Assembly (NCBI GenBank): GCA_001784435.1
Contig: MFQZ01000010.1
Location: 105,960-169,959 of the forward strand
DNA: 64,000 nt
Source of the DNA: Candidatus Magasanikbacteria bacterium RIFOXYC2_FULL_42_28
GTDB lineage: Bacteria; Patescibacteriota; Patescibacteriia; Magasanikbacterales; GWA2-37-8
Direction of reading: 5' to 3'
Shown in pieces: positions 2,286 through 60,600 of this stretch. Each line of letters begins with the position of its first letter. Position 1 is the first letter of the stretch. The position numbers and the translations under genes were made by a program. A model generated the notes under the pieces. It ran no database searches, was not told where the DNA came from, and was given only the letters and a program-made list of their open reading frames with translations.

Positions 2286-2356
2286 ATTGTCATTGCGAAC
2301 GAAGTGAAGCAATCTAACGTTGGGATTGCCGCGTCGCTACGGCTCCTCGCAATGAC
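2286..2356. repeat. family B palindromic repeat (ttgtcattgcgaRcgaagYgaagcaatc ... tcgcaatgacaa)
   Basis: Inverted-repeat element; related copies at 14922-15009, 22973-23002, 31028-31056. Confidence 0.7.
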
Positions 2357-2369
2357 AAATAAAAAAACT

Positions 2370-4826
2370 ATGTTAATTTCCTATAATTGGCTCAAAGAGC
2401 ATTGTGATTTACCGGCCGGGTTAACTCCGGCGGAATTAGGCGATAAATTTAAATTGGCAGTGGTTGAAGTTGAAAAAATTGTGAGCGAAGGTGAGAATTT
2501 GGAAAATATTGTCGTGGGCAAAGTGGTGTCGGCTGAGAAACACCCCAATGCTGATAAATTAAAAGTTTGTAAAGTTGATGCCGGTGGTGAATTGGTTCAG
2601 GTAGTGTGTGGTGGATCCAATGTTGCCGAAGGAATGCTCGTGGCGTTTGCGCCGATCGGTGCGAAAGTGCGCTGGCATGGGGAAGGGGATTTGGTGGAAT
2701 TAACCGAAGCGACTATTCGGGGCGAAAAATCATATGGCATGATTTGCGCTTCTACTGAAATTGGTTTGGGCGAAAAATTCCCGCTGAAAGACGAAAAAGA
2801 AATTTTAGATTTGACTTTTTTGAAATTAAAAGTGGGAACGCATTTGAAAACTGCTCTGAAATTAAACGACGCAGTTTTAGAAATTGACAACAAGTCGCTT
2901 TCGCACCGTCCGGATTTATGGGGGCACTTGGGTTTGGCGCGCGAGGCGGCCGCTTTGTTTAGTCGTCAATTGAAAGAATTGAAATTAGGGAAAATTAAGC
3001 CGGGCAAAAGTGTTTCTCTGTCGGTAAAAGTGGAAGATACTAAATTGTGTCCGCGTTATTTGGCGGTTGCGCTCGCCGGTATAAAAGTAGCGCCGTCGCC
3101 TGATTGGCTGCAGAGCCGATTGTTGACGGTGGGAATTAACCCCATCAATAATATCGTGGATATTACCAATTATGTCATGTTGGATTTGGGGCAACCGATG
3201 CACGCCTTTGACGCTTCGCGTATTGCTGTCATCCCAACGAAAGTCGGGATCTCTGTCCGTCTTGCAAAATCCGGTGAAACCATCGTCGCTTTAGACAAAA
3301 AAGAATACAAATTAACTGAAAATGATTTGGTAATCGCCACTGCCGAGCGTCCGATTGCTATTGCCGGCGTGATGGGCGCTTTGAATAGCGGAGTAACCGA
3401 CGCGACGGAAACTATTATTTTTGAATCAGCTAATTTTAATCCGGTGAGTGTGCGTAAGACCTCCACGCGTTTAAATTTGCGTTCGGACAGCGCGCAACGG
3501 TTTGAAAAATCCTTGGATCCTAATTTGTGCGAAATCGCGTTGCAAAAAGCCGTGGCCATGACTTTGGAAATTTGTCCGGGCGCGTCGGTAGCGAGCAAGG
3601 TTATTGATGAAAAACATTTTTCTCTATTCACCGGACCGCTCTTAATGCCGAAAAATATTTTTGAAAAAAAATTAGGCGTGGTTATTCCGCCCAAAAGAAT
3701 TAAAGAAATTTTAGAAAAATTGGGGTTTGTCGTTACTGAAAAAAAAGACGAATTGTCAGTCAAAATTCCCACTTGGCGCGCGACCAAAGATATTGCCATT
3801 GCCGAAGATATTGTGGAAGAAGTGGGGCGGATTTACGGTTTTAGCAATATTCCCGGCACGTTACCAACATTCCCGATTACTCCGGCTAGTTTAACACCGG
3901 TGCAAAAATTACAGCGCACGGTAAAAGATGTTTTGGTGCGCGAGTTGGGTTATTCGGAAATGTATAATTATTCGTTCGTGAGTGCGGAGCAAATTGTTCG
4001 TTCCGGAGATAACGTGGCAAACTATTTAGAGCTGGACAATCCGATTTCCAAAGAGAAACCATTTTTGCGGAGAAATCTGCTTTTAAATTTAATGGAAAAT
4101 CTTGAAAGAAATATCAATTCGGCTGAAGTAATAAAATTATTTGAAATTGGCAAAATATTTCAACCTGAAGAAGCCGGGCCACGCGCAGACAGCAACGGTG
4201 ATGAATTATTGCCCCGTCAAGATACCTGGTTGGGCGCAGTTAACGTAGAAAAAAAGAATGACACTCCTTTTTGGGAAGCGCGACGAGTCGCCGAGATTAT
4301 CACTCGCGAGCTTGGTGTTACAGTCAAATTTGTGCCAGGAGAAACTCTTTCGATGGCGCCTTATCAACATCCGGGGCGGACTGCTTGGATTTATGCCGGC
4401 GATAGTTTAGTCGGACGAGTGTGGGAGCTGCATCCGAAAGTTGCCGCTAATTTTAATTTTCCTTACCGGGTGGGTGTGTGTGGTTTTAACCTAAATATTT
4501 TGGCCGATAAACAGAGGGAGGCCCGCATTTTTAAACCGTTGTCACTGTATCCAGAAGTAAAACGCGATGTTGCTTTTGTCGTGTATACAAAAATTGTTCA
4601 TGTGGAAGTTGAGAAAGCGCTTGCTGGAATTGATCCGCTTGTGAAAGGCGTAGAATTGTTTGATGTATATACTGGCAAGAATTTGGGCGCAGGCAAAAAA
4701 AGTATGGCCTATCGTTTAACACTTTTAAATTCCGAGCGGACTTTGGAGTCCAAAGAAGTGGATGTGGTGATGGATAAGGCGACAAAAATGTTAGTTGAAA
4801 ATTTTGGGGCGGAGATGCGGGGGTAA
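2370..4826 (+). CDS. pheT: phenylalanine--tRNA ligase beta subunit
   Basis: Starts MLISYNWLKEHCDL; B3/B4, tRNA-binding and FDX-ACB-like regions; upstream ORF extension to 2304 is encoded by a repeat and rejected. Confidence 0.9.
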   Translation: MLISYNWLKEHCDLPAGLTPAELGDKFKLAVVEVEKIVSEGENLENIVVGKVVSAEKHPNADKLKVCKVDAGGELVQVVCGGSNVAEGMLVAFAPIGAKVRWHGEGDLVELTEATIRGEKSYGMICASTEIGLGEKFPLKDEKEILDLTFLKLKVGTHLKTALKLNDAVLEIDNKSLSHRPDLWGHLGLAREAAALFSRQLKELKLGKIKPGKSVSLSVKVEDTKLCPRYLAVALAGIKVAPSPDWLQSRLLTVGINPINNIVDITNYVMLDLGQPMHAFDASRIAVIPTKVGISVRLAKSGETIVALDKKEYKLTENDLVIATAERPIAIAGVMGALNSGVTDATETIIFESANFNPVSVRKTSTRLNLRSDSAQRFEKSLDPNLCEIALQKAVAMTLEICPGASVASKVIDEKHFSLFTGPLLMPKNIFEKKLGVVIPPKRIKEILEKLGFVVTEKKDELSVKIPTWRATKDIAIAEDIVEEVGRIYGFSNIPGTLPTFPITPASLTPVQKLQRTVKDVLVRELGYSEMYNYSFVSAEQIVRSGDNVANYLELDNPISKEKPFLRRNLLLNLMENLERNINSAEVIKLFEIGKIFQPEEAGPRADSNGDELLPRQDTWLGAVNVEKKNDTPFWEARRVAEIITRELGVTVKFVPGETLSMAPYQHPGRTAWIYAGDSLVGRVWELHPKVAANFNFPYRVGVCGFNLNILADKQREARIFKPLSLYPEVKRDVAFVVYTKIVHVEVEKALAGIDPLVKGVELFDVYTGKNLGAGKKSMAYRLTLLNSERTLESKEVDVVMDKATKMLVENFGAEMRG
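3227..3261. repeat. family A repeat (tgtcatcccaacgaaagtcgggatctctgtccgtc) in frame inside pheT
   Basis: Matches intergenic copies at 27772, 30744, 15337; encodes VIPTKVGISVRL within the PheT B3/B4 region. Confidence 0.7.
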
Positions 4827-4830: not shown

Positions 4831-4868
4831 TTGTCATTCCGACCGAGTGTAGCGAGCGGAGGAATCCC
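4831..4868. repeat. family A-like repeat (ttgtcattccgaccgagtgtagcgagcggaggaatccc)
   Basis: Sequence similarity to the other tgtcatYccga...ggaatc copies. Confidence 0.6.
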
Positions 4869-5625: not shown

Positions 5626-5785
5626 CTATTTATCAAGAAGAGACGAGGGAATTGGCCCGTTGACTCTCTACCAACCTAACTTCGGTTAAGGTGGTAATTC
5701 CAAACCCATTAGGGGAAAGATATGTCTTCCGGCACTGCCGGAAGAAAATTAGATTTCTTATCCTTGGGTAAGATTTTTTTTATTG
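5626..5785 (+). promoter_or_regulatory. SAM-I (S-box) riboswitch aptamer plus hairpin/T8 terminator
   Basis: TTATCAAGAAGAGACGAGGGAATTGGCCCG...CAACC...GGTGGTAATTCC...GAAAGATA matches the SAM-I consensus (UUAUCAAGAGNGG.GGAGGGA.UGGCCC...GCAACC...GGUGCUAAUUCC); followed by hairpins and TTTTTTTT at 5774-5781. Confidence 0.65.
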
Positions 5786-5883
5786 TTCTTTAAAATGGTT
5801 GTTGACAGCCACTCGCGCCTTACCCATGGTGGGTTGGGCGCGATCGCTGTTGGCAACTTACACTTTAAGAGGAGAGTTTGAAC

Positions 5884-7530: not shown

Positions 7531-8814
7531 ATGTTAATCGCCGATCTCCACATCCACTCTCGCTATTCCCGCGCCTGCTCGCCGGAATTGAATTTGGCTA
7601 ATATTGCTAAATGGTGCCAAATTAAGGGGATAAATTTGGTGTCTACCGGGGATTTTACCCACCCGGCTTGGATTGAAGAAATTAAGCGGGATTTGGAGGA
7701 AGTTGGGAATGGGTTTTTAAAGTTGAAACTCCCACCCCCTCCTACCTCCCCCTCGGGCAGGGGGAGGAACGATGACGTTCGATTTATCCTCGGCACCGAA
7801 GTATCTTGTATTTATTCCCAAGGTGGCAAAACCCGCCGCGTGCATTTACTTTTATTTTTTCCAAAAATTTCGGACGTGGAAAAATTTAATTCGGCACTCA
7901 CGAAAGAAGGTTGTAATATCCGCGCGGACGGTCGGCCAATTTTAGGACTTACAGCCAAAGAGGTTTTGCAAATAATGAAAGATATCAATCCAAAATCCGT
8001 GCTGATTCCGGCGCACGCTTGGACGCCGTGGTTCGCGGTGTTTGGTTCCAAATCCGGCTATGACAGTTTGGAAGAATGTTTTGAAGAGCTAACGCCGGAA
8101 ATTTTTGCGATTGAAACTGGCTTGTCCAGCGACCCGCCAATGAATTGGCGTCTGTCGGCTTTGGACAAAATTACTTTAATTTCCAATTCGGACGCACACA
8201 GTTTGCCAAATTTGGGGCGCGAGGCCAATATGTTTAATTTGGATATTGCCAAAACAAATTACGATGAATTTTTTGGAGCGATTAAAAACAAAGACAGCGA
8301 ACTATTTTTAAAAACGATTGAATTTTATCCGGAAGAGGGGATGTACCATGTGGATGGCCACCGCGCTTGCGATTTTAGTTGTACGCCAACGCAAACTAAA
8401 AAATTGGGCGGATTATGTCCCAAATGTAAAAAATCTTTGACCGTCGGTGTATTATCGCAAGTGGAAAAATTGGCCGATCGGCCGGAAGGGTATCGTCCGC
8501 CGGACGCGATTCCGTATGTGAGTTTGGTGGAATTAGATAAAATTATCGCACAAGCATTGGGGGTGAAAAGCCGTAAAAGCGTTAAGGTGCAGGCCGAATA
8601 TGAAAAATTAATAAAATACCACAACGAGTTTGAAATTTTATTGGATTTGTCGTATGATGAGCTCGCAAAAATTACCACGCCAATTATCGTAGAAGGAATA
8701 AAACGCGTGCGCGAAGGCAAACTAAAAATCACGCCCGGGTTTGACGGCGAGTATGGTCGGGTGGAAATTTTTACTGATGACGAGAGAAAGGAATTCCAGG
8801 GTAAATTATTTTAA
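7531..8814 (+). CDS. PHP-domain protein with Cys4 zinc ribbon, EndoQ-like
   Basis: N-terminal PHP motif MLIADLHIHSRYSRA, HAWTP, Cys cluster C..C...CPKC, C-terminal GFDGEYG; architecture resembles endonuclease Q; family C repeat inserted in frame (PPPPTSPSGRGRNDD). Confidence 0.5.
   Translation: MLIADLHIHSRYSRACSPELNLANIAKWCQIKGINLVSTGDFTHPAWIEEIKRDLEEVGNGFLKLKLPPPPTSPSGRGRNDDVRFILGTEVSCIYSQGGKTRRVHLLLFFPKISDVEKFNSALTKEGCNIRADGRPILGLTAKEVLQIMKDINPKSVLIPAHAWTPWFAVFGSKSGYDSLEECFEELTPEIFAIETGLSSDPPMNWRLSALDKITLISNSDAHSLPNLGREANMFNLDIAKTNYDEFFGAIKNKDSELFLKTIEFYPEEGMYHVDGHRACDFSCTPTQTKKLGGLCPKCKKSLTVGVLSQVEKLADRPEGYRPPDAIPYVSLVELDKIIAQALGVKSRKSVKVQAEYEKLIKYHNEFEILLDLSYDELAKITTPIIVEGIKRVREGKLKITPGFDGEYGRVEIFTDDERKEFQGKLF
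7730..7770. repeat. family C GC-rich palindromic repeat (reverse orientation) inside PHP gene
   Basis: cccaccccctcctacctccccctcgggcagggggagg is the reverse complement of the copies at 31131, 44666, 59581. Confidence 0.7.
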
Positions 8815-14605: not shown

Positions 14606-15733
14606 TTATTCTATTTCCCAATTCGGATCAGCATTAAGAATTCGCCAATCGGTGAATTCTTTTTTTTGCGCTTGGTAATATCCAGCGACGGCGATCATGG
14701 CGGCGTTGTCCATGCAATATTTTAAATTTGGAATAAGTAGTTCATGGCCAATAGATTGCGATTCGTGAGCGAGCGTTTCGCGCAACTTTTCATTGGCCGC
14801 CACGCCACCACCCAAAATTATAGTTTTAGGATTATAAAGTTTGGCGGCTTTTAAAGTTTTGCCTACCAAGACATCAACAATTGCTTGTTCAAAAGACGCG
14901 CAGAAGTCGTTGACACTCGGTTTGTCATTGCGAGGAGTGAAACTACGAAGCAATCCCATGACTGTTGGCCAGAGATTGCCGCGCTCCCTACGGTCGCTCG
15001 CAATGACAGTGCCGGCGAGTTTATTATCGCGCAACCAATACAGAGCCGCTGTTTTTAATCCGGAAAAACTAAACTCCAAATTATCATCTTTTAGCATCGG
15101 CCGTGGAAAATCAATCGCGTCCGTTCGTCCGGTCTTCGCCAACTCCGAAATTTTTGGTCCACCCGGGTATTCTAACTCTAAAAGTTTTGCCACTTTATCA
15201 AAACATTCACCGGCGGCATCATCACGCGTCGCGCCGATTTTTTTGTATTCATTTGCCGAGTTCATTAAAATTAATTCCGTATGCCCACCACTCACAATCA
15301 GTGCGAGCGCCGGATATTCAATTGTCGTCACCGTATTGTCATCCCGATGAAAATCGGGATCTCTGTCCGTCTGTATTTCCACCGAGTGGCTGTGCCCCCA
15401 AATATGATTAACCGCAACAATAGGCACATTCCAAACCATACTCAAAGTCCGCGCCGCCTCTACGCCAACAATTAAACCGGTAATTAGTCCCGGTCCAGCC
15501 GTAACAGCAATCACATCCGGCCGTGGTTGGTTTTTTAAAACCTCTTCAATCAAAGGCACAATCTTCTCCGCGTGCGCTCTACCAGCCAATTCCGGCACCA
15601 CCCCACCATATTTTTTATGCAAATCAATTTGCGATACTGCCGATTCACGAACAACAAAACAGCCCTCGGGAGAACAATCCACAAGGGCCACCGCGGTATC
15701 GTCGCAAGATGATTCAATGCCGAGAATCAACAT
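14606..15733 (-). CDS. tsaD: tRNA N6-adenosine threonylcarbamoyltransferase
   Basis: MLILGIESSCDDTAVALV and the Kae1/YgjD fold; carries two in-frame repeat insertions. Confidence 0.9.
   Translation of the reverse strand: MLILGIESSCDDTAVALVDCSPEGCFVVRESAVSQIDLHKKYGGVVPELAGRAHAEKIVPLIEEVLKNQPRPDVIAVTAGPGLITGLIVGVEAARTLSMVWNVPIVAVNHIWGHSHSVEIQTDRDPDFHRDDNTVTTIEYPALALIVSGGHTELILMNSANEYKKIGATRDDAAGECFDKVAKLLELEYPGGPKISELAKTGRTDAIDFPRPMLKDDNLEFSFSGLKTAALYWLRDNKLAGTVIASDRRERGNLWPTVMGLLRSFTPRNDKPSVNDFCASFEQAIVDVLVGKTLKAAKLYNPKTIILGGGVAANEKLRETLAHESQSIGHELLIPNLKYCMDNAAMIAVAGYYQAQKKEFTDWRILNADPNWEIE
14922..15009. repeat. family B palindromic repeat in frame inside tsaD
   Basis: ttgtcattgcgag...ctcgcaatgaca; encodes about 29 aa (..DRRERGNLWPTVMGLLRSFTPRNDK) on the - strand. 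Confidence 0.7.
15337..15372. repeat. family A repeat in frame inside tsaD
   Basis: ttgtcatcccgatgaaaatcgggatctctgtccgtctg; encodes TDRDPDFHRDDNT on the - strand. Confidence 0.75.
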
Positions 15734-21562: not shown

Positions 21563-22405
21563 TCAATCGGCCAATATATTGGGGTTTTTGGTTGCTTCGG
21601 CTGGTGAGCGAGCATCGGTCAAACCGTATTCCCCAATTTGGGTCCTTGTCAAGGCCTGGCAGTAGGCCCCGGTGCCGAGTTTTTTGCCAATGTCTTCGGC
21701 GAGGGTGCGGATGTAAGTGCCGGCCGAGCAGGTGACTTCTATTGTTAAATTTGGCCAGACGTAGTCCAGAAGTTTGATGTCATAAATTTCAATTGCCGAT
21801 GGTTTGCGTTCCACGGTTTTGCCCACGCGAGCAAGTTCGTATAATTTTTTGCCAGCGATTTTTTTGGCGCTGTACATCGGGGGAACTTGCTTATTTTTGC
21901 CAATGAAAGATTTAATAATTTTTTGTGTTAGTTCTAGTGTCGGTGGAATTGGTGAGAGAATATTGAATATTGGATATTGAATATTAGTGTCCGGTCGTCC
22001 AATTGTCATTCCGACAGAGGCTCGCGCCGACGAGGAATCTCCATCCCGTCCAATTTTCTTTAATATCCAATATTTAATATTTAATATCCAAGACTTTTTT
22101 TGAAAGGGAATGATTGTCCCAGTGCAGTCGCCCGTATCCGAAACAGCGCCAAGCCGTATCGTCGCCACATAAGTTTTTCGTAAATTTTTAAATTCATCCA
22201 ACCGCTTAGTCGCCTCGCGCCCCACGCCCACAATTAACAAACCAGTCGCAAACGGATCCAAAGTGCCAGCATGCCCCACCCGAATATTTTTTGGCGCGCC
22301 GTTATTAATCAAATTTTTACGAATAAACCCAACCACATCAAAACTAGTCCAGTTGATTGGTTTATTGATAAGGAGGAAATTTGTGGGTAATTGTGTTTTG
22401 GTCAT
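21563..22405 (-). CDS. truB: tRNA pseudouridine(55) synthase
   Basis: GHAGTLDPFATGLLIVGVG catalytic motif; about 45 aa in-frame insert from a composite repeat. Confidence 0.9.
   Translation of the reverse strand: MTKTQLPTNFLLINKPINWTSFDVVGFIRKNLINNGAPKNIRVGHAGTLDPFATGLLIVGVGREATKRLDEFKNLRKTYVATIRLGAVSDTGDCTGTIIPFQKKSWILNIKYWILKKIGRDGDSSSARASVGMTIGRPDTNIQYPIFNILSPIPPTLELTQKIIKSFIGKNKQVPPMYSAKKIAGKKLYELARVGKTVERKPSAIEIYDIKLLDYVWPNLTIEVTCSAGTYIRTLAEDIGKKLGTGAYCQALTRTQIGEYGLTDARSPAEATKNPNILAD
21959..22092. repeat. composite MITE-like element inside truB: AT-rich inverted arms (attgaatattggatattgaatatt / aatatccaatatttaatattt) flanking a family A core
   Basis: Core tgtcattccgacagaggctcgcgccgacgaggaatctccatcccgtc; translated in frame as SWILNIKYWILKKIGRDGDSSSARASVGMTIGRPDTNIQYPIFNILSPI. 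Confidence 0.75.
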
Positions 22406-22931: not shown

Positions 22932-22972
22932 TAATTTTGTCATCTCCGTGAAAACGCGGATCCAGTCGCAGA

Positions 22973-23002
22973 TTGTCATTGCGAGCAAAGCGAAGCAATC
23001 TG
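22973..23002. repeat. family B repeat (ttgtcattgcgagcaaagcgaagcaatctg), preceded by an A-like degenerate copy at 22936-22971
   Basis: Sequence identity to the other B copies. Confidence 0.65.
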
Positions 23003-27771: not shown

Positions 27772-27825
27772 TTGTCATCCCGAGTGAGGACTCCCGACTT
27801 AGTCGGGACGAGGGATCTCTGTCCA
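27772..27825. repeat. family A repeat (ttgtcatcccgagtgaggactcccgacttagtcgggacgagggatctctgtcc)
   Basis: Intergenic copy upstream of trxA. Confidence 0.75.
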
Positions 27826-30743: not shown

Positions 30744-30775
30744 TGTCATCCCGATGAAAATCGGGATCTCTGTCT
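30744..30775. repeat. family A repeat (tgtcatcccgatgaaaatcgggatctctgtcta) abutting the mutM start
   Basis: Identical core to the copy in tsaD. Confidence 0.8.
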
Positions 30776-31690
30776 ATGCCCGAACTTCCCGAAGTAGAAA
30801 CAGTTCGCCGTGATTTGGAAAAAGTTTTGGTTGGTAAAAAAATCACGGCAGTAGAAATTTTAGATAAAAAAATTGTCGGCGGTAAACCGGCAGTTTTTGT
30901 GTCGGCTGTAAATGGTAAGAAAATTGTTGGGGTGGAGCGAAGAGGGAAATTATTGGCGTTTAAATTAAGTAGCGGTGAATATTTGTTAGCGCATCTGAAA
31001 ATGACCGGGCAGTTGATTTGTGTTTCATTGTCATTGCGAGCGAAGCGCGGCAATCTCATCGCCGGCGGTCACCAAGTTGGTAAAAACGATTTAACTGTGC
31101 CAAACAAATTCACGCGCGTCATTTTTGCATTTTCCCCTCCTGCCCGAGGAGGGGCGAGGGGTGGTGGGAGCGTTGGTGGCACACTATATTTCAACGACCT
31201 CCGTCGTTTCGGTTATTTAAAAGTTGTATCGGCGGAAGAAAAAGAAACCATATTTAAAAATAATTTTGGTATTGAACCATTGACACCCGATTTTAAATTA
31301 TCAGCTTTTACAAAAATATTTCGAAACCGTAAAACCAATTTAAAAGCGATTTTGATGAATCAAAAATTAATTTCTGGCTTGGGGAATATTTACGTGGACG
31401 AGGCCTGTTTTAACGCTGGACTTTTACCGTGGCGATCGGCTAAGTCACTAAAACCGCCAGAAATTAAAAAATTATTTTCTTGTATTCAAAAAGTAATCGC
31501 CGTGGCCATTAAAAATCGCGGCACCACTTTTAAAGATTTTCGCGATGGCGCGGGTGGGCGCGGGGCGCATTATAATTTTCTTAATGTGTATGGGCGCAAA
31601 GGTGAAAAATGCCGGAAGTGTAAAAATTTTATAAAAAAGACCAAACACGCCGGGCGGGGGACGCATTTTTGTCCGAAATGTCAGCGGTAA
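30776..31690 (+). CDS. mutM: formamidopyrimidine-DNA glycosylase
   Basis: MPELPEVETVRR N terminus, H2TH region and C-terminal zinc finger CRKCKN..C..C; two in-frame repeat insertions. Confidence 0.85.
   Translation: MPELPEVETVRRDLEKVLVGKKITAVEILDKKIVGGKPAVFVSAVNGKKIVGVERRGKLLAFKLSSGEYLLAHLKMTGQLICVSLSLRAKRGNLIAGGHQVGKNDLTVPNKFTRVIFAFSPPARGGARGGGSVGGTLYFNDLRRFGYLKVVSAEEKETIFKNNFGIEPLTPDFKLSAFTKIFRNRKTNLKAILMNQKLISGLGNIYVDEACFNAGLLPWRSAKSLKPPEIKKLFSCIQKVIAVAIKNRGTTFKDFRDGAGGRGAHYNFLNVYGRKGEKCRKCKNFIKKTKHAGRGTHFCPKCQR
31028..31056. repeat. family B repeat in frame inside mutM
   Basis: ttgtcattgcgagcgaagcgcggcaatctc encodes CVSLSLRAKRGNLIAG. Confidence 0.75.
31131..31172. repeat. family C repeat in frame inside mutM
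   Basis: ttttcccctcctgcccgaggaggggcgaggggtggtgggagcg encodes FSPPARGGARGGGSVG. Confidence 0.75.
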
Positions 31691-31752: not shown

Positions 31753-34700
31753 ATGTCAAAATACGATCATAAAAAAATAGAAGCAAAATGGAAGAAAAAT
31801 TGGGAAAAGTCCGGGATATATAAAACCGGCGACCCATCCTTCGCTAAGGATTCGGCGGGCAAGCCCAAGTATTATGTCTTGGACATGTTTCCGTATCCAT
31901 CAGGCGCGGGTTTGCATGTCGGCCACCCCAAGGGTTTTATCGCCACCGACATTGTCGCGCGTTTAAAAATGATGCAAGGGTACAATGTTTTGCACCCGAT
32001 GGGTTGGGACGCGTTTGGGCTACCGGCGGAAAATTATGCTTTGAAAAATAAAGTTCATCCGGCGGACGCGACTGCCGAAAATATTAAAGTTTTTAAAAAA
32101 CAATTAGGCCTTTTGGGTTTTACTTATGATTGGAGCAGGGAAGTGAATACGACTGATCCAGAATATTATAAATGGACCCAGTGGATATTTTTACAATTAT
32201 TTAAAAAGGGTCTGGCGTTTGAATCTTACGAACCGATTAATTGGTGCCCGTCGTGCAAAACCGGTTTGGCTAATGAAGATTTGGAAGATGGGAAATGTGA
32301 GCGCTGTGGGAGCGTGGTAGAACAAAAACCTTTGCGCCAATGGGTATTGAAAATTACCGATTATGCCGAGCGTTTGCTCAATGATATTGAATTATTAAAA
32401 GAATGGCCCGAGCCGATTAAAGAAATGCAGAGAAATTGGATTGGACGCAAGGAGGGTATAAATATCGTATATCAAATTGAGGGGTCGGATAAAAAAGTTA
32501 TTTGTTTCACCACTCGTCCTGACACAAATTTCGGTGCTACTTTTGTTGTGGTTGGCCCGGAACATTCTTTGATTTCATCAATAACAACATCGGAGTATAA
32601 AGAAGATGTAGAAAAATATGTATCCGCCGCTAAAAATAAAACAGAATTAGATAGAATTGCGGAAGGTAGAGAGAAAAGTGGTGTGTTTACCGGTTCGTAT
32701 TGCATAAATAATTTGACTGATTATAAAATGCCGATTTGGGTGGCTGATTATGTGTTAGGCAATGTAGGAACTGGCATGGTAGTAGGTGTGCCGGGACATG
32801 ATAAACGCGATTTTGAATTTGCCAATAAATTTGGTATTGAAATAAAAAGAGTGGTGGTGGCCGGTGATGGTGATACGTCGCCTATTACTAAAATAGAACA
32901 GGTGCAGGAACATGAAGGGGAAATGATAAATTCTGGATTTTTGGATGGTTTAGATATTCACGATGCTACACGTAAGATAATGGATCGTTTAGAAGAAAAA
33001 GGATGGGGTAAGCGAGTGATTAATTATAAATTACGCGATTGGGTTTTTTCGCGCCAACGTTATTGGGGGGAGCCGATACCGCTCGTGCATTGTGAAGTGT
33101 GCAAAAATAAAAAATATAATTACATTATTTTACACGGATATACCGGTACGGCCGATCAAAATGGACCGGGTAGAGGCGATTCTAATAATTGGCGCCCGTG
33201 GGTAAAAGTTAAATTAGAAGAACGTGGCAATAAAGTTTTTTGTCCTAATCTTCCAAACACTAATGAACCAAATATAGATGAACAAGTGCAATATGTTATA
33301 GACAATGTTAATTTTGAGATAGACGAAAACACGGTTATAGTTGGGCATAGTTTGGGTGGAGTAGTGATATATAAACTGTTGGAAAAATTAAATAAGAAAG
33401 TTGGCAAAGTATTGTTAGTTGATCCGGTAGTAAGTCCCGAGTTTCCGGACAAAGAAAGACTAAATGTAAAAAAGAGTTGTGACTGGAAATTTAATTTTGA
33501 GAAGATAAAAAAATTAAGTGATGATTTTGTTGTTTTGGGTGCGTCTGATTTTGCGACTATCTTTGAAAAAGATTTAAGATTTGTGGCCGATAAACTGGAA
33601 GCAAATTTAGTTTTAGCTAAACCAGCGGAAGGGCATTTTACAGCTGAAGAAGAGCCGGTCGTATTAAATTTATTAAATAATACTGGCTGGTACCCAGTCC
33701 CAGAAAAAGACCTGCCACTTGAATTGCCAAAAGTAAAAAATTATGAACCGACTGGAACCGGGGAATCGCCACTCGCGGGAATTGATAAGTGGGTGAATAC
33801 ATTATGTCCTCATTGTGGCGGGCCGGCGAAACGTGAAACCAATACCATGCCACAGTGGGCGGGGAGTTGTTGGTATTATTTGCGCTATGAAGATCCGCAT
33901 AACAGTAAAGCACTCGTGGATAAAGATAAAGAAAAATATTGGTCGCCGGTGGATTTTTATGTTGGTGGCGCCGAACACGCCACGCGCCATTTAATTTACG
34001 CGCGGTTTTGGCATAAGTTTTTATTTGATATTGGGGCGGTTAGCAATATTGAGCCGTTTACCAAATTACAAAGTGTGGGTTTGATTCTGGCCGAAGACGG
34101 GCGCAAGATGAGTAAGCGTTGGAATAATGTAATTAATCCCGATGATGTTGTGGCTGAATTTGGCGCGGACGCGATGCGTTTGTATGAAATGTTTATGGGG
34201 CCATTTGATCAGGCTTGCGCTTGGAGTACGAAAGGTGTGATTGGGTGTCGGCGGTTTTTGGAAAAGGTTTGGGTGCTGGGCGAGAAGATTAAAGATGAAA
34301 GATTGAAGATTAATGGTGATAATAATAAAAATATTGAGATATTATTAAACCAAACAATCAAAAAAGTTACCGAAGACATTCCAGCGATGCGATTTAACAC
34401 GGCCATCGCGCAACTGATGATTTTTGCGAATGAGGCTTCACAATCTTCTATCTTAAATCTTCAATCTTTCGCTTCATTCCTCCAACTTCTCGCTCCATTT
34501 GCTCCGCATATGACAGAAGAGCTGTGGGCAAATTTAGGCAACAAAGAAAGTATTTTTAAATCCGCGTGGCCGAAATTTGACCCCACCAAAATTCAACATT
34601 CCGAAATTACCGTCGTCGTTCAAGTAAACGGTAAGCTGCGCGATGAAATAATTGTGCCAGTTGATATTGCCGAAGCCGATGCCAAAGCGCGGGCGCTTTC

Positions 34701-41346: not shown

Positions 41347-42344
41347 ACAAATTATTGCAACAAGCTATCATCCGGACCTTAACTTATTTTGATATTGTAA
41401 AAAAATCCCTAACGCGCGCGGAGTTATTTAGTTTTTTGTGGCAACCACCGTTTGTTGGTCGTGAAGAATTTAATAAATATTTAGAAGAGAACACTGTTGT
41501 CATCCTGAGCGAAGCGAAGGATCCCTTAAGGTCAAATGTAAGGGATTCTTCGGCTACGCCTCAGAATGACAAAAAAAGTTGGCAAGCGAAAGATGGTTTG
41601 TATTTTTTACCTGGCCATGATGAATTCGTTGAAAAACGCGCCGCTGGTCGGGAGCATAGCGATCGATTATTAAAAATCGCTGTGCGCGCGGTTAAAAAAA
41701 TTCGTTCTATTCCGTTTGTCCGCGCGATTTTTGTTTGCAATTCGGTCGGGTCGGGGACGGCGAGCGACAACTCGGATGTGGATTTATTTATCATCACCGC
41801 GCCCAAGAGAGTATGGCTTGTTAGATTTTTTACTAATATCACGATGTTATTATTTGGCTTGCGCCGGCACGGTGATAAAGTTGCCGGTAAAGTTTGTTTA
41901 TCATTTCTAGTAGATGAAAAAAAATTAAATATGGCGCCGTGGCGCGTTTGTGATGACGATATTTATCTGGCGTATTGGCTGTTCCAATTAATTCCGTTGT
42001 ATGATCCGAATAATTTATATGATAAGTTGATAGCGGCCAATGGTTGGGTAAAAAAGTATTTGCCTAATGTTAAAAAAAATTCTACAGATACTTTCGCTTT
42101 GACAGATTCAGTCTGGGGATTAAAATGGAAAAACCTTTGGGAAAAATTTTGGACCGGCGCGTATGGTGATTTAATTGAAAATCAAGCGCGGGGAACGCAG
42201 CAGGCCAAAATGAAATTTAGTTCGCACGGTAAAGTTCGCCCGCATGACAAAAGCGTAATTGTGGGGGAGGGAGTGATTAAATTACACGAAGGTGATACGC
42301 GGGAAGAATTACACCGACAGTGGCTTGACGCCATTTCCGAATAG
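41343..42344 (+). CDS. hypothetical protein with nucleotidyltransferase-like GS..DvDlfI motif; carries an in-frame family A palindrome
   Basis: GSGTASDNSDVDLFIIT; repeat encodes VVILSEAKDPLRSNVRDSSATPQNDKK. Confidence 0.4.
   Translation: MNKLLQQAIIRTLTYFDIVKKSLTRAELFSFLWQPPFVGREEFNKYLEENTVVILSEAKDPLRSNVRDSSATPQNDKKSWQAKDGLYFLPGHDEFVEKRAAGREHSDRLLKIAVRAVKKIRSIPFVRAIFVCNSVGSGTASDNSDVDLFIITAPKRVWLVRFFTNITMLLFGLRRHGDKVAGKVCLSFLVDEKKLNMAPWRVCDDDIYLAYWLFQLIPLYDPNNLYDKLIAANGWVKKYLPNVKKNSTDTFALTDSVWGLKWKNLWEKFWTGAYGDLIENQARGTQQAKMKFSSHGKVRPHDKSVIVGEGVIKLHEGDTREELHRQWLDAISE
41497..41572. repeat. family A palindromic composite (ttgtcatcctgagcgaagcgaaggatccc ... gggattcttcggctacgcctcagaatgacaa)
   Basis: Perfect-ish inverted repeat inside the CDS at 41343-42344. 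Confidence 0.7.
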
Positions 42345-44612: not shown

Positions 44613-44665
44613 AAAATGTAAAATGTAAATATCAAAAATCAAAATTAGCGAGTTTTCCGTTCGTT

Positions 44666-44708
44666 GTCTCCCCCTGCCCGAGGGGGAGAATAAGAGGGGG
44701 TGGGAGCG
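44666..44708. repeat. family C repeat downstream of groEL
   Basis: ccccctgcccgagggggagaataagagggggtgggagcgg. Confidence 0.7.
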
Positions 44709-50030: not shown

Positions 50031-50079
50031 GTGGTATGCTTGCCCGCCTCTGGCGGGGGGGATGTATTAAAACACCATC

Positions 50080-50124
50080 TGTCATTCCGAGCGAGGCCAA
50101 AGGCCGACGAGGAATCTCTGTCTA
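50080..50124. repeat. family A repeat (tgtcattccgagcgaggccaaaggccgacgaggaatctctgtcta)
   Basis: Follows the groEL-tail duplicate, like the repeats after the real groEL. Confidence 0.7.
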
Positions 50125-52620: not shown

Positions 52621-52700
52621 TTGTCATGCCGATGAAAATCGTCATCTCTGTCCGTTGGTTATTGATTAAGATAGAGATCCCGACTTTCGTCGGGATGATA
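52621..52700. repeat. family A composite (two inverted copies: ttgtcatgccgatgaaaatcgtcatctctgtcc ... gatcccgactttcgtcgggatga)
   Basis: Upstream of prfB. Confidence 0.7.
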
Positions 52701-54580: not shown

Positions 54581-55810
54581 GTGTTAAATCAACATAAAGC
54601 ATATTATTGGCTTATCGTTCTTACGGCCTATGCCGCCGGTGCGTTTTTGATCCTAAATGCTTGGGAAGGGGTAAATTTGAGTTGGGAGGCCTCTACGCCG
54701 AATTATCCCATTCATAATTTGCATTTATCCTACGGCAATAGTAAGCCACCGGCACGTGTTGTAAAGGGGCTGTATTTAACCGCCTATTCCGCTGGCAATC
54801 CAGCTAAAATTGACGAAATAATCAACTTGATTGATAAGACAGAATTAAACGCGGTCGTGATTGATATTAAAGATTATAGCGGTTTAATTTTTTATCCATC
54901 GCAAGTGCCGCTCGTGGTAAAAATTAACGCCTCGGAAAATCGTTTGCGTGATATTGTCGCGACTATAAAAAAATTACATGATCACAATATATATGTAATC
55001 GCTCGGCAAACGGTTTTTCAAGATCCTTTTTTGGCCGAAGCACGGCCGGAGTGGGCGATTAAATCAAAAAGTGGGGGATCCGTCTCTGCTACGGCTACGC
55101 CGGACAAGTTATGGCGCGACAACAAAGGTTTAACTTGGGTTGACCCCACCCGTAAGGAAGTTTGGAATTATAATTTGGCCATCGCGCGCGAGGCGGCAGA
55201 ATTAGGCTTTGATGAAATAAATTTTGATTACGTGCGCTTTCCGTCGGACGGGCCGATGAGTCAAGTGGTGTATAGTGATACTCGGAAATTATACGAAATA
55301 ATGGGAGAATTTTATAAATTTATCGGGGCGGGAATGAAAGGTGCACCGGTTTGGATTTCGCTTGATATGTTTGGATTTGTAATGGAAAAATCCGGTGAGG
55401 ACGATATGCGTATTGGCCAACGCGTGGTGGACGCGGTTAATTTTACTGATTATATTTCGCCGATGATGTATCCGTCGCATTATCCGTCCGGCCACTTAAA
55501 TTTAAAAAATCCGGCGGCGTTCCCTGGCGCGGTGATTGATAATGGGATGAAAATGGGTGAACATTTTTTTACAACGTCCACACGCGCGCAAGTCCGGCCA
55601 TGGCTCCAAGCCTTTAATATGGGGGCGATTTATGATGCGGAAAAAATTCGCGCGCAAATTGATATGGTGGAGAAATATCCGAACGCGGGGTGGTTGTTGT
55701 GGAATGCGTCGAATAGATATTCAGATGCGGGACTCACCGTTTGTCATCCCGATGCGCCCGAGCGAAGCGACAAGTACTCTTGGGGTGAAAATCGGGGTCT
55801 CTGTCCGTAA
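54581..55810 (+). CDS. TIM-barrel putative glycoside hydrolase-like protein (DUF4015/GHL-type), N-terminal TM
   Basis: GFDEINFDYVRFP motif typical of GHL10/DUF4015 proteins; C terminus encoded by a family A repeat. Confidence 0.45.
   Translation: MLNQHKAYYWLIVLTAYAAGAFLILNAWEGVNLSWEASTPNYPIHNLHLSYGNSKPPARVVKGLYLTAYSAGNPAKIDEIINLIDKTELNAVVIDIKDYSGLIFYPSQVPLVVKINASENRLRDIVATIKKLHDHNIYVIARQTVFQDPFLAEARPEWAIKSKSGGSVSATATPDKLWRDNKGLTWVDPTRKEVWNYNLAIAREAAELGFDEINFDYVRFPSDGPMSQVVYSDTRKLYEIMGEFYKFIGAGMKGAPVWISLDMFGFVMEKSGEDDMRIGQRVVDAVNFTDYISPMMYPSHYPSGHLNLKNPAAFPGAVIDNGMKMGEHFFTTSTRAQVRPWLQAFNMGAIYDAEKIRAQIDMVEKYPNAGWLLWNASNRYSDAGLTVCHPDAPERSDKYSWGENRGLCP
55741..55808. repeat. family A repeat forming the 3' end of the preceding CDS
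   Basis: ttgtcatcccgatgcgcccgagcgaagcgacaagtactcttggggtgaaaatcggggtctctgtccgt. Confidence 0.7.
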
Positions 55811-55939: not shown

Positions 55940-56896
55940 ATGCACTTCTTTACCCCCAAAGCCATTCAAAACCTTTGCCAACAATATGGCCTAAAACCAT
56001 CGCGCGATTATGGTCAGAATTATTTGTTGTCGTTAGAGCCGATTGAGGCGATGCTTAAAGCGGCCGAGATTAAAAAGACCGATACCATCGTGGAAATTGG
56101 CCCTGGTTTTGGCGCGCTTACATGTGGCTTGGCTGATGAGGCCGGTAAAGTGATTGCGTTTGAAATTGAGAAAAAAATTGAAAAATATTGGCAGGAAAAA
56201 ACCAAAGAATATCCGAACGTGGAAATTGTGTGGGGGAATGTATTGAGAATGTTTTGTCATTTCGAGCGAGGCCTCAAGGCCGACGAGAAATCTCCATCCG
56301 ATGCGATTGACGATAATGGAGATCCCCCACATTCGTTCGGGATGACAGTGGGCGAGCCGTATAAAGTCGTCGCTAACATTCCTTATCAGATTACTTCCCC
56401 CTTAATTAAATTATTTTTAGAAGATATAAAAAACAAACCTGAGTTGATGGTTCTTATGGTGCAAAAAGAAGTGGCCGAGCGCATTTGCGCCAAGCCCGGT
56501 GATATGTCGGTGCTTGCGATTGCAGTACAATATTTTGCGACGCCGGAAATAATTATTCATGTCCCTCGTCATTTTTTTTATCCCATTCCGGAAGTTGATT
56601 CGGCGGTGATTAAAATTACTCTCAAAAAATTTGATAAAAATCAAGAAGAAAATACTAAACAATTTTTTAAATTAGTCAAAACCGGATTTTCCAGTCGTCG
56701 TAAAATTCTTGTCAAAAATTTATTACCACTGGTCGGGGGTGGGTCGGGGCTTAAAAAATTACAAGAAATTTGGGAGAAATTGGGTTACTCACGCACCATT
56801 CGAGCGCAGGAATTAAGCGTTACTGACTGGATAAAATTGGCGCAAGAGTTGGCGCAGAGTTATCCACATACAAAAAAAGATGAAGATGTGGTATAA
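55940..56896 (+). CDS. rsmA: 16S rRNA (adenine1518/1519-N6)-dimethyltransferase
   Basis: GQNYLL, VEIGPGFGALT and NIPYQITSP motifs; about 26 aa in-frame repeat insert; start ATG 55940. Confidence 0.9.
   Translation: MHFFTPKAIQNLCQQYGLKPSRDYGQNYLLSLEPIEAMLKAAEIKKTDTIVEIGPGFGALTCGLADEAGKVIAFEIEKKIEKYWQEKTKEYPNVEIVWGNVLRMFCHFERGLKADEKSPSDAIDDNGDPPHSFGMTVGEPYKVVANIPYQITSPLIKLFLEDIKNKPELMVLMVQKEVAERICAKPGDMSVLAIAVQYFATPEIIIHVPRHFFYPIPEVDSAVIKITLKKFDKNQEENTKQFFKLVKTGFSSRRKILVKNLLPLVGGGSGLKKLQEIWEKLGYSRTIRAQELSVTDWIKLAQELAQSYPHTKKDEDVV
56254..56330. repeat. family A repeat in frame inside rsmA
   Basis: ttgtcatttcgagcgaggcctcaaggccgacgagaaatctccatccg... encodes FCHFERGLKADEKSPSDAIDDNGDPP. Confidence 0.7.
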
Positions 56897-57601: not shown

Positions 57602-57603
57602 TT

Positions 57604-60600
57604 ATGCGTCAACCGCCTAAAAAATTAGGTCTTTCGGCACTGTTAGCGATGTTTGTCGCGACCACGATGTTTGGTTCGCTTTTTACTTTAACTCCGGCGC
57701 GCGCGCAATGGACGATTGTTGGCGACTTACCGCGTATGGCGACTGAAATCGGTGAAAAAATCAAAGAAGGATTGGGTGTCGCGGTTTTAAATGGCGCGTT
57801 GCGAGCGGTTTCATACGCGGCGCGTAAAATCGCTTATGACGCGGCCGTATGGGTGGCATCGGGTGGCAAAGGTCAACAGCCGTTGGCTTTTAGCAAAGGG
57901 TTTGGCGCTTATATGAAAGATGTGGGCTCGGCGTCGTTTGGCGAAGCCGTGTCTTCAATCGAAGATCAATTTGGCGTAAGCATCTGTCAGATACCGGACG
58001 TAAAATTGGATTTGGCTTTACGGATTGGCATTCGCGGGTTAAACACGGTTGAACCTAAACGGCAAGGAGATTGCGATTTTCAAACATTTACGAAAAACTG
58101 GAGTTCGGAAAATTTAAAAAGTAAATATGGCTCTGTTGAGGGCTTAACTAAACAATTTAACGCGTCGCTTAAAACCGAGAATACGGATTTTGGTGTTTAT
58201 TTGGACTCGGTGGCTAAAATTGATGAATATACTAAAAAAAGCCGTGAGGCCTTGCTTTTGGATCGTCAAGAAGGCCAGGGAACAAAAAATTTAACCGATT
58301 ATGTTTCCGGTAATATTTTGACACCAGCGCAACAAGTTAAGAAATTTATTGATGATAACAGTGTGGGCGAACAGCAAAAAGCCGATCAAGCCACCATATA
58401 CTCGGCGATTGGGAGCGGTTTTGTCCAGGTGATTCCTTCTACCATCTCAATGTTTTTAAACACTTTGGCCGGCACGATGCTGAAGAATTTTATGACTAAT
58501 GGCACGTTGCCGTTTGGTTTGGGTTGCGTTGGCGAGAATAATAAAGATTGTTTGGGTGGTAACCCGGCGGAATTTGCCGGTAGTGGCGCGCGCGGTGGTC
58601 GGCAAGCGGCGCAAGCCGTGTTTAGCGAGTTGCTTGTTCCAACGATTAATCCAAACATTAGTTTTGATATTGTCGCCGAATTAAGCAGTTGTCCGGACAC
58701 GCCGTCGGCGTTTAATTGCCGAATGGATGGGGATTTAGTCGCCGCGCTTCAAAGTGCCTTTATTGTCGGTGGAGAACCGATGACCATAAGGGAGGCGTTA
58801 GATAAAGGTTATTTGCATAAAGATTGGCGCTTGTTGCCACCAAGTCGTCCGGAAAATCAAATTGATCGGGCTTATGAAACCGCCTATACTTATGCCAATA
58901 TTAAGGCCTTGCGTTTGGCGCGAATTTTGCCACTTGGTTTTGAAATTGCGGCTTTGGAAAGCGACCCTGATAATCCCTGGAAATTAGGTGAAGTGGTGGG
59001 CATGGAAGAGGGTGATGGCACCGGTTGGGAAGATTGCACTGATGTTGATAATAACGGCACCCCCGAATATGACGCCGCCAAAAAATTCTGCCACTTAATT
59101 GATCCTAATTGGATTTTGAAAGCGCCTAAAAGTCGGTGCAATGCTTTTGTATTTGGCAATCAACCGTTATCCGGTGGTGTGCCTAATCGCCTACAAGAAT
59201 GTGTTGATTTGAGCAGTGTGGTGGCTTACAATTCCGACAAAACGCCTTTGTCTTATGCCTATTGCGCGCGCGAAAAAAATGTTTGGAAATCAAACGCCGA
59301 CACTTGCGATAGTCAATACGCCACCTGCTTGGCTTACACCGCGCCCGATGGGCAACAGGTTGGGTATTTACAACGTACTTTAAATACCGGCAATTGCGAT
59401 GCCAGCAATGTCGGCTGCAGTGCTTATAGTTTAACGCAAAATTCCTCTGGAATTTGGCAACAGCCGGCGTTTGATGCAACTTTGGCGAATTTTAATCGGG
59501 GCATTCATTTTAATAATAAATTATCGTCAGCTTGTAGCGCCAATTCAGCCGGTTGTTCAGCATTCACATTGGCCGGCAATTTCCCCCCTTCTGCCCGAGG
59601 AGGGGGCGAGGGGGTGGTGGGAGCATTGTATTTACGTAAAGCCCCGGATTATTTAGGATGTTATGACGCCGAACCGGCCGTCGCGGGTGTAAAATGGCCG
59701 ACCACCACCGCTGAATTATCAATTATTGCTGTTAACAAAAAACCGCAATGCGCCGATTATTCCCAAGCGTGCATTCCGAGTGAAGTTGGTTGTAATATGT
59801 TTACGGCTGTAAAAAGCGGTTGGCAGATACCGGGCAAATTTACACCAGCGACGATTAAAAGTGACGGCACCGGCATTGAAAAATGGAACGACCAGTGTGA
59901 TGCCAAATGCGATGGTTATGATGGCTATGTCCGTTTGGCTGATAATTATTCCAGCAGTTCACCTGTGGATTATATCATTCCGTCCACCAACGCGACTTGC
60001 GCCCGAGAGGAAGTCGGTTGTACCGGTTTCACCAATATGAGCGCGGTATATGAGGGTGGGGAACAGGTGGAATATTTCTCGCTGTTGCGTTCGTGTATCA
60101 AGCCGGACGCGACTAAGCAAAAGAATTTTTATACTTATGAGGGCTCAACTTTGGGCGGGTATCAATTAAAGGTCTATACTTTGGAAAAAGATGAGGAGGG
60201 CGGGCCGAAATATTTTTATAAAGATGATGCCGAGCGCCTTACTTTTAACCAGCTTTGCAGTGAAGAAAAATACAAAGATAATACCGCCGCGACCGATTGT
60301 CGACAATTTAACGATGACCAAGGTGCTGTTTACTACCGTTTATTAGGTAAAACAATTGTCGTTTCGGACAAATGCACGCCTTATCGGTTAAATTCCACGG
60401 AAATGGAAATATCAACGCCAGGGAGTGAAAAATGTTTCCAAAACGGTGAATACAAAGATGGCTTTTGCTATTACAATGGCTTACCGGGTGGAGTGATCGC
60501 GTCCGAAGGCCAAAGTAATTCTTGTAGCGCCACGGCAGAGTCCTGCCACGCCTATAAAGGCAACGCCGGCAACAATATTGAAAATGTAGCCAGTTTAGAT

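Follow-up and report, generated by a model that had tools for sequence, protein, structure and literature searches.

Palindromic repeats resembling CGTC-tagged REP elements lie in frame within housekeeping genes of a Candidatus Magasanikbacteria genome

Bacteria of the Candidate Phyla Radiation (CPR)/Patescibacteria are held to be extremely streamlined, yet in the lineage considered here a palindromic repeat of selfish appearance has about half its copies inside genes, among them tsaD, mutM, rsmA, and truB. What these repeats are, and how such genes accommodate them, is the question raised by a 64,000-nucleotide stretch of DNA (hereafter the window) from a metagenome-assembled genome (MAG) of Candidatus Magasanikbacteria from the Rifle aquifer. 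An original prediction, made from the sequence, distinguished three repeat families (A, B, and C) and likened them to the Rickettsia palindromic elements (RPEs). Families A and B probably belong to an already described class, that of the CGTC-tagged repetitive extragenic palindromes (REPs), the dRS3/NTS repeats, and the Ssn-related motifs (SRMs), which includes RPE-4 and RPE-6; they would have multiplied within a CPR lineage, with genic copies surviving in tolerant loops of the encoded proteins.

Consensus searches of the window, allowing up to three mismatches and controlled by 100 dinucleotide-preserving shuffles for each family, returned five copies of family A, three of B, and four of C, against none expected in each case. 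A repeat copy is present at every coordinate originally listed, and the claim that the repeats are multicopy is borne out by these counts. A structural search for a YGTC tag followed by a hairpin whose stem starts with AT (a start that the search itself required) found 20 units, compared with 2.1 in shuffled sequence (shuffle maximum 6). For wider comparison, the window was combined with 82 Magasanikbacteria loci; the prefix L denotes comparison loci and P comparison proteins.

When copies are read side by side, A and B share one plan: TGTC, a hairpin starting with AT, and then a C(T/C)C tail. The A-type unit, ATCCCGAT-GAAA-ATCGGGAT, has an 8-bp stem and a 4-nt loop, and the other stem types of A and B are ATTGC...GCAAT, ATTCC...GGAAT, and ATCCT...AGGAT. 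Across the window and the 82 loci, the left 4-mer of candidate hairpins is TGTC in 97 cases and CGTC in seven, with all window units carrying TGTC. Unit tails are CTC or CCC in the window, and CCA in locus L006 and in units beside ssn genes, which encode the nuclease described below. The stem triplets differ by sub-type yet match their partners, with 197 matching stems in the window and related loci against a permuted mean of 75 and maximum of 100. At least six stem variants occur, each with its matching partner; because the triplets vary but still pair, it is the hairpin, and not the primary sequence, that is conserved. A and B are therefore sub-types of one superfamily, and the three-family scheme originally proposed stands only with respect to family C, which is a separate element: four copies of a G-rich hairpin, CCCCTCCT-GCCCG-AGGAGGGG, followed by an GGGGTGGTGGGAGC tail.

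A fourth, AT-rich family must be added, made up of palindromes and 7-nt-periodic tracts. It comprises the flanks of the truB insert and the leuS copy, both previously placed among the three families, and fills several intergenic spacers too. Its palindromic elements, of about 110 nt (..AAATTTCCAATTTCCAA.. / ..TTGGAAATTGGAAATT..), were observed in the following spacers, and elements of the same kind flank the TGTC unit within truB.

7343-7455, AT-rich palindromic element
38015-38074, AT-rich palindromic element
39322-39439, AT-rich palindromic element
53782-53878, AT-rich palindromic element
54459-54573, AT-rich palindromic element
55822-55937, AT-rich palindromic element

The copies that lie within coding sequences are given below (no strand is assigned to dimers and composites).

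3227..3262, plus strand, single A-type unit (TGTCATCCCAACGAAAGTCGGGATCTCTGTCCGTCT) in pheT, matching the unit at 30/31 positions; peptide AVIPTKVGISV
7729..7766, minus strand, family C unit (G-rich hairpin and GGGGGTGGGAG tail) in the EndoQ gene; peptide LPPPPTSPSGR
14922..15008, no strand, 87-nt dimer in tsaD (gene on the minus strand); peptide VIASDRRERGNLWPTVMGLLRSFTPRND
15336..15372, plus strand, single A-type unit in tsaD, antisense to the gene; peptide TDRDPDFHRDDN
21959..22091, no strand, composite insert in truB (gene on the minus strand), in which an AT-rich inverted repeat, with its arms at 21959-21994 and 22046-22091, surrounds a TGTC unit (22003-22041)
31028..31057, plus strand, single B-type unit in mutM; peptide LSLRAKRGNL
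31131..31171, plus strand, family C unit in mutM; peptide SPPARGGARGGGS
34442..34468, plus strand, AT-rich 7-nt-periodic tract in leuS, matching the intergenic tract at 27842 in 26 of 27 positions
41497..41572, no strand, dimer in the open reading frame (ORF) 41343-42344, a conserved CPR protein with no function assigned; peptide VVILSEAKDPLRSNVRDSSATPQNDK
55741..55808, plus strand, A-type unit with extra loop sequence, supplying the last ~22 codons of a DUF4015 gene
56254..56347, no strand, 94-nt dimer in rsmA; peptide CHFERGLKADEKSPSDAIDDNGDPPHSFGMT
59581..59624, plus strand, family C unit, in frame in a giant secreted protein whose ORF runs from 57604 past the window end; peptide PPSARGGGEGVVGA

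All genic copies lie in open frame, as had been claimed. The copy at 2286 sits in the pheS-pheT spacer: this dimer (2287..2358) is noncoding if pheT starts at an ATG near 2352-2370, and falls within the mechanical ORF 2304-4826 only via an upstream GTG. Dimers contain stop codons in three or four of their six frames, never in the frame of the host gene.

Alignment with orthologues, the check that the original prediction had proposed, indicates that most of these segments are inserts, with empty sites found for tsaD, mutM, EndoQ, truB, rsmA, and ORF 41343. The 87-nt dimer at tsaD 14922 amounts to 29 codons, present in the codon alignment in the window, L001, and L082; its site is empty in P0003/L081 (72% identical), where a 32-residue segment is wholly lacking. 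The second tsaD copy, at 15337, adds ~10 residues. Relative to Thermotoga maritima TsaD, residues 238-269 of the window protein have no counterpart and ~10 extra residues occur at 121-141. Both MutM inserts (31028 and 31131) are missing in L014, L026, and L042, and the first site holds another dimer in L064. The EndoQ copy at 7730 accounts for 11 additional residues relative to L005 and L013 (66-71% identical) and 15 relative to PfuEndoQ (5zb8), with the repeat residues falling in the alignment gap. In TruB, 58 residues stand in place of nine in the T. maritima protein and are absent from three CPR orthologues, the insert (21959-22085 region) adding about 45-49 residues. The rsmA insert at 56254 is missing in P0227-P0230, P0235, P0248, and P0294, and the dimer at 41497 is missing in P0122, the closest homologue of ORF 41343; another homologue, P0125, carries a VIPAKAGIQ..RIPVRND dimer at the same site. 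Of the 11 genic sites originally named, eight are thus real in-frame insertions and two are replacements, with the giant-protein copy a candidate insertion. The stated gain of 10-48 residues for every copy does not hold, as it fails in leuS and pheT: with the leuS tract (34441) the length is exactly that of 28 orthologues, native sequence having been replaced with no residues added, and at the pheT copy (3227) loop length varies among 39 orthologues, for a net gain of 0-4 residues.

It may be argued that the segments are not inserts at all, and are instead native lineage-specific loops resembling repeats or artefacts of metagenome assembly, given that the window derives from a MAG and that the leuS tract and the pheT unit differ little or not at all in length from their orthologues. 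Genic copies, however, are 90-100% identical to intergenic copies, and orthologues 65-80% identical to the host proteins do without the segments. Three separate assembly records (window, L001, and L082) moreover contain the same tsaD dimer, and analogous inserts are seen in MAGs from many other sites. These comparisons leave the native-loop or artefact explanation largely refuted and with a negligible probability.

Two side observations concern leuS. The gene contains two 7-nt-periodic AT-rich tracts, at 34288-34316 and 34442-34468, in opposite orientation and 125 nt apart, which match tandem tracts lying between genes, at 27842-27896 and 29425-29453. The encoded LeuS, of 1039 residues, also has an alpha/beta-hydrolase or Ser_hydrolase domain (PF06821, 2e-07; PF00561, 5e-07) between segments of its catalytic core (window 33120-33650, residues ~486-660).

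How do essential proteins accommodate these segments? The TsaD loop that follows 'YWLRDN' is nine to 13 residues long in the shortest orthologues, with a common 30-residue form in many, and at least 12 lineages carry repeat-derived inserts in it, acquired independently and each with its own DNA sequence. The insert types comprise TGTC units, single or dimeric and of several stem types, G-rich family C dimers, and a CHPEF...VQHD type. The insertion sites in RsmA, MutM, and ORF 41343 have likewise been hit by other repeats in other CPR lineages, and some inserts in such lineages encode peptides close to those of Rickettsia (VIPAKAGIQ in P0125, CHSRENGNP in P0226). In an AlphaFold2 model of the window TsaD, built from 28 sequences, the mean predicted local distance difference test (pLDDT) score is 87.9, and values below 50 occur only at residues 128-133, 246-254, and 261-268, all within the two inserts and located between well-defined secondary-structure elements. 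The insert segments are thus predicted by the model to be probably disordered.

Within the window and the 82 loci, 64 of 134 units (48%) are genic, that is, inside ORFs of at least 200 residues, a set that holds a few false positives and in which dimer halves are not independent of each other. These ORFs cover 73% of the DNA, and genes are therefore under-hit, yet half of the copies are located in them. A single codon phase (GTC ATx, giving 'VI..', or xAT GAC, giving '..ND') is shared by 48 of the 64 genic units, more than stop content would predict. This pattern fits a filter through which insertions survive only if they are tolerated and leave the frame intact, and would reflect purifying selection. 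An intrinsic freedom of the repeats from stop codons in all frames was considered and rejected, given the stops in three or four of the six frames of dimers and the similar open-frame numbers of genic and intergenic units. Tolerance through permissive loops together with purifying selection is well supported: inserts lie in loops that vary among orthologues and form the only low-confidence parts of the TsaD model, and the host-protein tolerance that had been proposed is thereby sustained. The other half of that proposal, selection for repeat-encoded peptides, finds no support in the present analysis.

A different kind of selection is nevertheless conceivable, in which the repeats are kept because they are useful (as modulators of transformation or recombination in the manner of Neisseria NTS, as RNA or terminator elements, or as protein loops) and selection maintains the genic copies. 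Evidence that could be read in this way comes from tsaD, which was compared with that of L001, another Magasanikbacteria locus from Rifle (TsaD 74% identical). The two genes are 70-80% identical in DNA outside one tract of ~400 nt (14845-15244), within which there are 13 differences in 400 nt (97-99% identity). The core of the tract (14845-15073) has only two differences and is centred on the dimer 14922-15008, and the dimer shows 88% identity between lineages that differ at most synonymous sites elsewhere in tsaD. A competence gene, comEC, is encoded in the window; NTS and Ssn modulate transformation in Neisseria (PMC11893778); the same loops are hit repeatedly; and intergenic copies lie mostly just past stop codons. 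Against usefulness, every insert is dispensed with by close relatives, different lineages have inserts of unrelated sequence at one site, disorder is predicted for the inserts, and the mosaic tract has been seen once only. The recurrent hits to the same loops are, in addition, predicted equally by a permissive-site filter. Maintenance for a useful function is hence an unlikely explanation.

The tract itself looks like a recent short-patch recombination event that would have carried the dimer between species. Spread of the elements by uptake and gene conversion as well may be hypothesised, the single mosaic case being consistent with it. In a broader and quite tentative form, for which the odds are low, CPR Ssn-linked repeats might spread among co-occurring species by DNA uptake and homing-like short-patch conversion (~70-150 nt of flank), generating loop variation in essential proteins and possibly marking recombination tracts.

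If the tolerated copies are survivors of a wider spread, what made them? Dimers consist of two units placed head to head (TTGTCAT....ATGACAA) over 68-94 nt, and fold into a single long hairpin of -28 to -39 kcal/mol. The window contains five of them and one spaced inverted pair, with a head-to-tail pair only at 22937/22973. Their perfect 12-14-nt terminal inverted repeats would suit classical MITEs (miniature transposable elements with inverted repeats), that is, deletion derivatives of insertion sequences (ISs) encoding a DDE transposase, moved by cut-and-paste via the TTGTCAT...ATGACAA termini and leaving target-site duplications. Single units are as common as dimers, however, and no target-site duplication is found at dimer ends. 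Around A units, TGTC...TGTC, and TATC...TATC at 52670, were considered as a 4-bp duplication and discarded: the A-unit tail is kept as CTCTGTCCGTCT, so the second TGTC is part of the element. Furthermore, no transposase was found among the window ORFs or beside units in related and viral loci totalling 2.3 Mb, and the gene that does lie between inverted units encodes a GIY-YIG nuclease. A MITE origin is for these reasons rated as improbable. As a separate observation, the A-type unit at 52670-52700 has TATC in place of TGTC at both tag and tail (TATC-hairpin-CTC-TATC), the two co-varying although the tail TGTC otherwise belongs to the conserved CTCTGTCCGTCT.

The nuclease gene was found in locus L031 (17554-17930), where TGTCATTCCCGTCGCAGCGGGAATCCAGTCG and an inverted copy of it exactly bracket an ORF of 100 residues with a GIY-YIG domain (PF01541, 3e-17). 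This ORF sits in the pheS-pheT spacer, at which the window has a gene-less dimer, and the nearest solved relatives of its product are UPF0213 GIY-YIG proteins. Elsewhere in the Magasanikbacteria loci, ORFs enclosed by inverted units are ordinary genes, and candidate enclosed ORFs in viral contigs encode small helix-turn-helix proteins or have no matches. When metagenomes were scanned with the L031 protein, 80 homologues were recovered (57-73% identity), their contigs having G+C contents of 28-67%. Flanking sequence sufficed for 73 of them: tagged units stand on either side of the gene in 34 and on a single side in 23, with unit density reaching 5.9/kb within 150 nt of the gene, compared with 0.26/kb beyond 300 nt. 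The tags face outward (56 vs 11 upstream, 60 vs 19 downstream), and the flanking consensus, TGTCATTCCCGCGAAAGCGGGAATCCA, is the CGTC-1/NTS sequence. This linkage of nuclease and hairpin was at one point a candidate for a new finding and was set aside as such, having already been published: Chenal et al. 2025 (PMC11893778) describe NTS/SRM repeats flanking ssnA, a gene for a GIY-YIG nuclease of 94 residues that binds and cuts the motif as single-stranded DNA (ssDNA) only and modulates Neisseria transformation. An IS-like NTS-ssnA-NTS architecture is noted there, along with an enrichment in symbionts such as Rickettsia and Wolbachia (PMC11893778). The linkage in L031 and the metagenomes reproduces that report. 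Set apart from it is a second small GIY-YIG ORF, 36% identical to the L031 protein, in an extra ~900 nt of the closest relative, L001 (954-1882), beside tRNA-Glu; this block is missing at the syntenic window position 17179-17236, and its flanks hold other hairpins and not TGTC units.

Membership of the A/B repeats in the CGTC REP class would thus be accounted for as follows. The unit consists of an unpaired (T/C)GTC tag, a stem whose first pairs are A-T and T-A, and a short tail rich in C, and the class has as its cognate protein Ssn, a single-domain GIY-YIG nuclease of ~100 residues acting on ssDNA only, with its gene typically between two inverted units. Gene-less dimers look like derivatives of such a unit-gene-unit element. 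New copies may be made by Ssn or by another ssDNA-based process, and the repeats would have multiplied in a CPR lineage along with family C and the AT-rich palindromes. Genic copies would survive only with the frame kept, no stop codon, and a tolerant surface loop, to be translated as extra and probably disordered loop segments; if so, peptides spanning the inserts such as NKLAGTVIASDR, GNLWPTVMGLLR, MFCHFER, and FSPPAR are predicted.

Several points weigh against this account. The B-type unit has a closing stem of 5 bp and an interior of 12-30 nt, against a canonical stem of 8-9 bp and loop of 4-5 nt, and no relatives or enzyme are known for family C and the AT-rich repeats. The published SRM string, HGTCWYN(0-2)YYVSBRHN(0-5)WNVSBRGN(0-2)RNCYNB, has one match in the window (22938), compared with 0.27 in shuffles, and its density is 0.1/10 kb in Magasanikbacteria loci and 5.2/10 kb around ssn homologues; with a single window site matched, CPR variants are evidently missed by it. 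No GIY-YIG/ssn or other transposase-like gene is present in the 64-kb window, and Di Nocera et al. found no dedicated transposase for CGTC REPs (PMC3733652). The pheT and leuS copies replace native sequence rather than add to it, which a simple insertion model leaves unexplained. The argument for translation of the inserts is conservation of the reading frame.

The superfamily is found widely, with an abundance specific to the lineage: of 81 Magasanikbacteria sequences, 33 contain units and the rest none, and B-type units are present in at least 120 IMG/VR contigs (38-66% G+C), some of them with arrays of up to 17 units. Two of these contigs, of ~54% G+C, show tandem B-type arrays with a spacing of ~37-42 nt (L121, 2669-2856; L147, 8304-8491), with up to 17 units on one contig.

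The intergenic copies in the window are as follows.

2287..2358, no strand, B-type head-to-head dimer of two TGTC hairpins in the pheS-pheT spacer; fold -28.2 kcal/mol
4831..4868, plus strand, single unit, 5 nt past the pheT stop codon
6866..6934, no strand, dimer (TGTCATGCTGAA.. / ..TTTAGGATGACA); fold -30.6 kcal/mol
22937..23002, plus strand, two tandem single units (22937-22966 and 22973-23002)
27772..27823, plus strand, single unit with a long interior, upstream of a thioredoxin gene; an AT-rich tandem tract with 7-nt periodicity comes after it, at 27842-27896
30744..30774, plus strand, single A-type unit filling the gdh-mutM spacer
44665..44707, plus strand, family C unit downstream of groEL
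50079..50122, plus strand, single unit found by the structural search
52621..52700, no strand, inverted pair of A-type units 17 nt apart, upstream of prfA

The window has a G+C content of ~43% and a GC skew that is positive throughout. Single units in it point the same way on the G-rich (plus) strand in ten of ten cases, among them the units within tsaD and truB, which are minus-strand genes; a replication-strand bias was considered and rejected, the related loci showing 25 vs 21 (p = 0.66). Mapping with Pfam places the housekeeping genes pheS/pheT, dnaE, tsaD, RNase Y, truB, infB, gdh, mutM, leuS, comEC, nusA, yidC, groES/EL, prfA, sua5, and rsmA in the window, together with several toxin-antitoxin pairs and one giant secreted protein. 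An Rfam scan of the window found nothing at the repeats, its sole matches being two tRNAs and one S-adenosylmethionine (SAM) riboswitch. The riboswitch (RF00162, 63 bits; 5627-5726) lies upstream of ORF 5878-6681, which weakly matches the C-terminal domain of SAM hydroxide adenosyltransferase. In nusA (38084-39310), the N-terminal domain of NusA is matched in two separate stretches, and in yidC (39406-40254) the match to the YidC domain extends over 205 residues for 160 positions of the profile; both patterns hint at what may be further lineage-specific inserts. The giant protein (57604-64000) exceeds 2132 residues and continues past the window end, with an N-terminal hydrophobic segment, many cysteines, and a weak CBM_4_9 match. 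Lastly, the final ~220 nt of groEL are duplicated at 49764-49985 with 85% identity. The ~5-kb block between the groEL copies contains toxin-antitoxin genes of a MazE/ParE-like type, genes for a DUF4116 protein and an AAA ATPase, an internal duplication of 300 nt, and modules (CAAAAATAATCGACCGCTCGGTCGGTTATTTTTTTG and then ..TTATTTGCCAAA..GGTCGGGGGGGGGGTATAC) that are repeated, occurring four times and again at 23080; from its sequence, block 44340-50200 looks like a cassette array, or like an island that has integrated in groEL at its 3′ end.

With these repeats, both the phenomenon known from Rickettsia RPEs and the recently characterised Ssn/SRM system reach into a large section of the bacterial tree that is uncultivated, and since the published SRM pattern misses CPR variants, the family is probably much wider than reported. 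In practical terms, inserts of this kind inflate and distort protein alignments, hidden Markov model coverage, and CPR marker-gene phylogenies, and create spurious 'hypothetical' ORFs; they also constitute a natural map of insertion-tolerant loops in essential enzymes.

With respect to known systems, the comparison first drawn was with Rickettsia. RPE-1, reportedly described by Ogata et al. in 2000, is said to consist of palindromic repeats in frame in many unrelated genes of a reduced genome, at surface loops, and its translation is said to have been shown. The window repeats resemble Rickettsia palindromic elements in their in-frame, stop-free copies in unrelated ORFs and at surface loops, and differ in that RPE-1 is reportedly longer (about 100-150 bp) and of a different sequence family, and in that translation in the window would follow only from the frame. 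The parallel nonetheless goes further than first proposed, for the in-frame insertions into housekeeping genes are joined by a shared CGTC/TGTC REP architecture and the same peptide frames; because the features of the A-type unit broadly match those of CGTC REPs, the likeness to Rickettsia is a relationship of architecture and not of behaviour alone.

That class was defined by Di Nocera, De Gregorio and Rocco (2013), who equated CGTC-1 and CGTC-4 with Neisseria dRS3 and with Rickettsia RPE-6 and RPE-4 (PMC3733652). CGTC REPs have a CGTC tag that is often TGTC, a stem of 8-9 bp starting with AT, a 4-5-nt loop, and a CCA tail, and mostly form head-to-head dimers; their in-frame intragenic copies lie in truB, tRNA synthetases, and dimethyladenosine transferase/rRNA methyltransferase, and their encoded peptides include VIPAKAGI, CHSRESGNP, SFPRKRES, DSRFRGND, and ..AGMT (PMC3733652). 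Window units have the same unpaired TGTC tag, AT stem start, and short C-rich tail, are sited just downstream of genes, and are mostly head-to-head dimers, and the A-type unit, with its 8-bp stem and GAAA loop, follows the published description closely. Genic copies are again found in frame in tRNA synthetases, truB, and an rRNA methyltransferase, and the window peptides VIPTKVGIS, CHFERG, LSLRAKRGNL, DRDPDFHRDD, TPRNDK, and SFGMT match the published peptides in three frames. The differences lie in the host, since Proteobacteria, Chlorobi, Bacteroidetes, Spirochaetes, and Thermotogae are listed for CGTC REPs (PMC3733652) and the window belongs to the CPR; in the 5-bp closing stem and long interior of the B type; in tails of CTC/CCC and not CCA; and in the very high intragenic fraction of the window lineage, ~48%.

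The SRM/NTS repeats of Chenal et al. contain a motif, CGTCATTCCCGCGMAVGCGGGAATCYRG, of the same architecture, and are likewise enriched in host-dependent bacteria with small genomes (PMC11893778). Their motif-ssn-motif arrangement recurs in L031, and units lie beside 57 of the 73 metagenomic homologues. Unlike that system, the 64-kb window has no ssn gene; no CPR or in-frame genic copies are reported by Chenal et al., and an effect on transformation has been demonstrated in Neisseria (PMC11893778), whereas the window repeats are known from sequence. A more distant parallel is REPIN/RAYT, described by Bertels and Rainey (2011), in which inverted REP doublets form a longer hairpin and singlets are remnants (PMC3116915). 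There too a single-copy enzyme gene is flanked by repeats, although that system has a GTAG tag and a Y1 (IS200-like) transposase and the present one a YGTC tag and a linked GIY-YIG nuclease, with no Y1_Tnp match among the window ORFs or the unit-enclosed ORFs.

The repeats had been put forward as undescribed for genomes of this kind, and to this extent the claim stands: in the open-access literature searched, no description of palindromic, REP, RPE, or MITE-type repeats was found for CPR, Patescibacteria, or Magasanikbacteria, and searching with the repeat sequences gave unrelated primer matches only. It does not extend to the element class, its intragenic copies, or the associated nuclease, all of which were already known (PMC3733652, PMC11893778). 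Novelty lies in the host group itself, in units whose variants diverge, in the very high proportion of genic copies, and in loops that have been used repeatedly.

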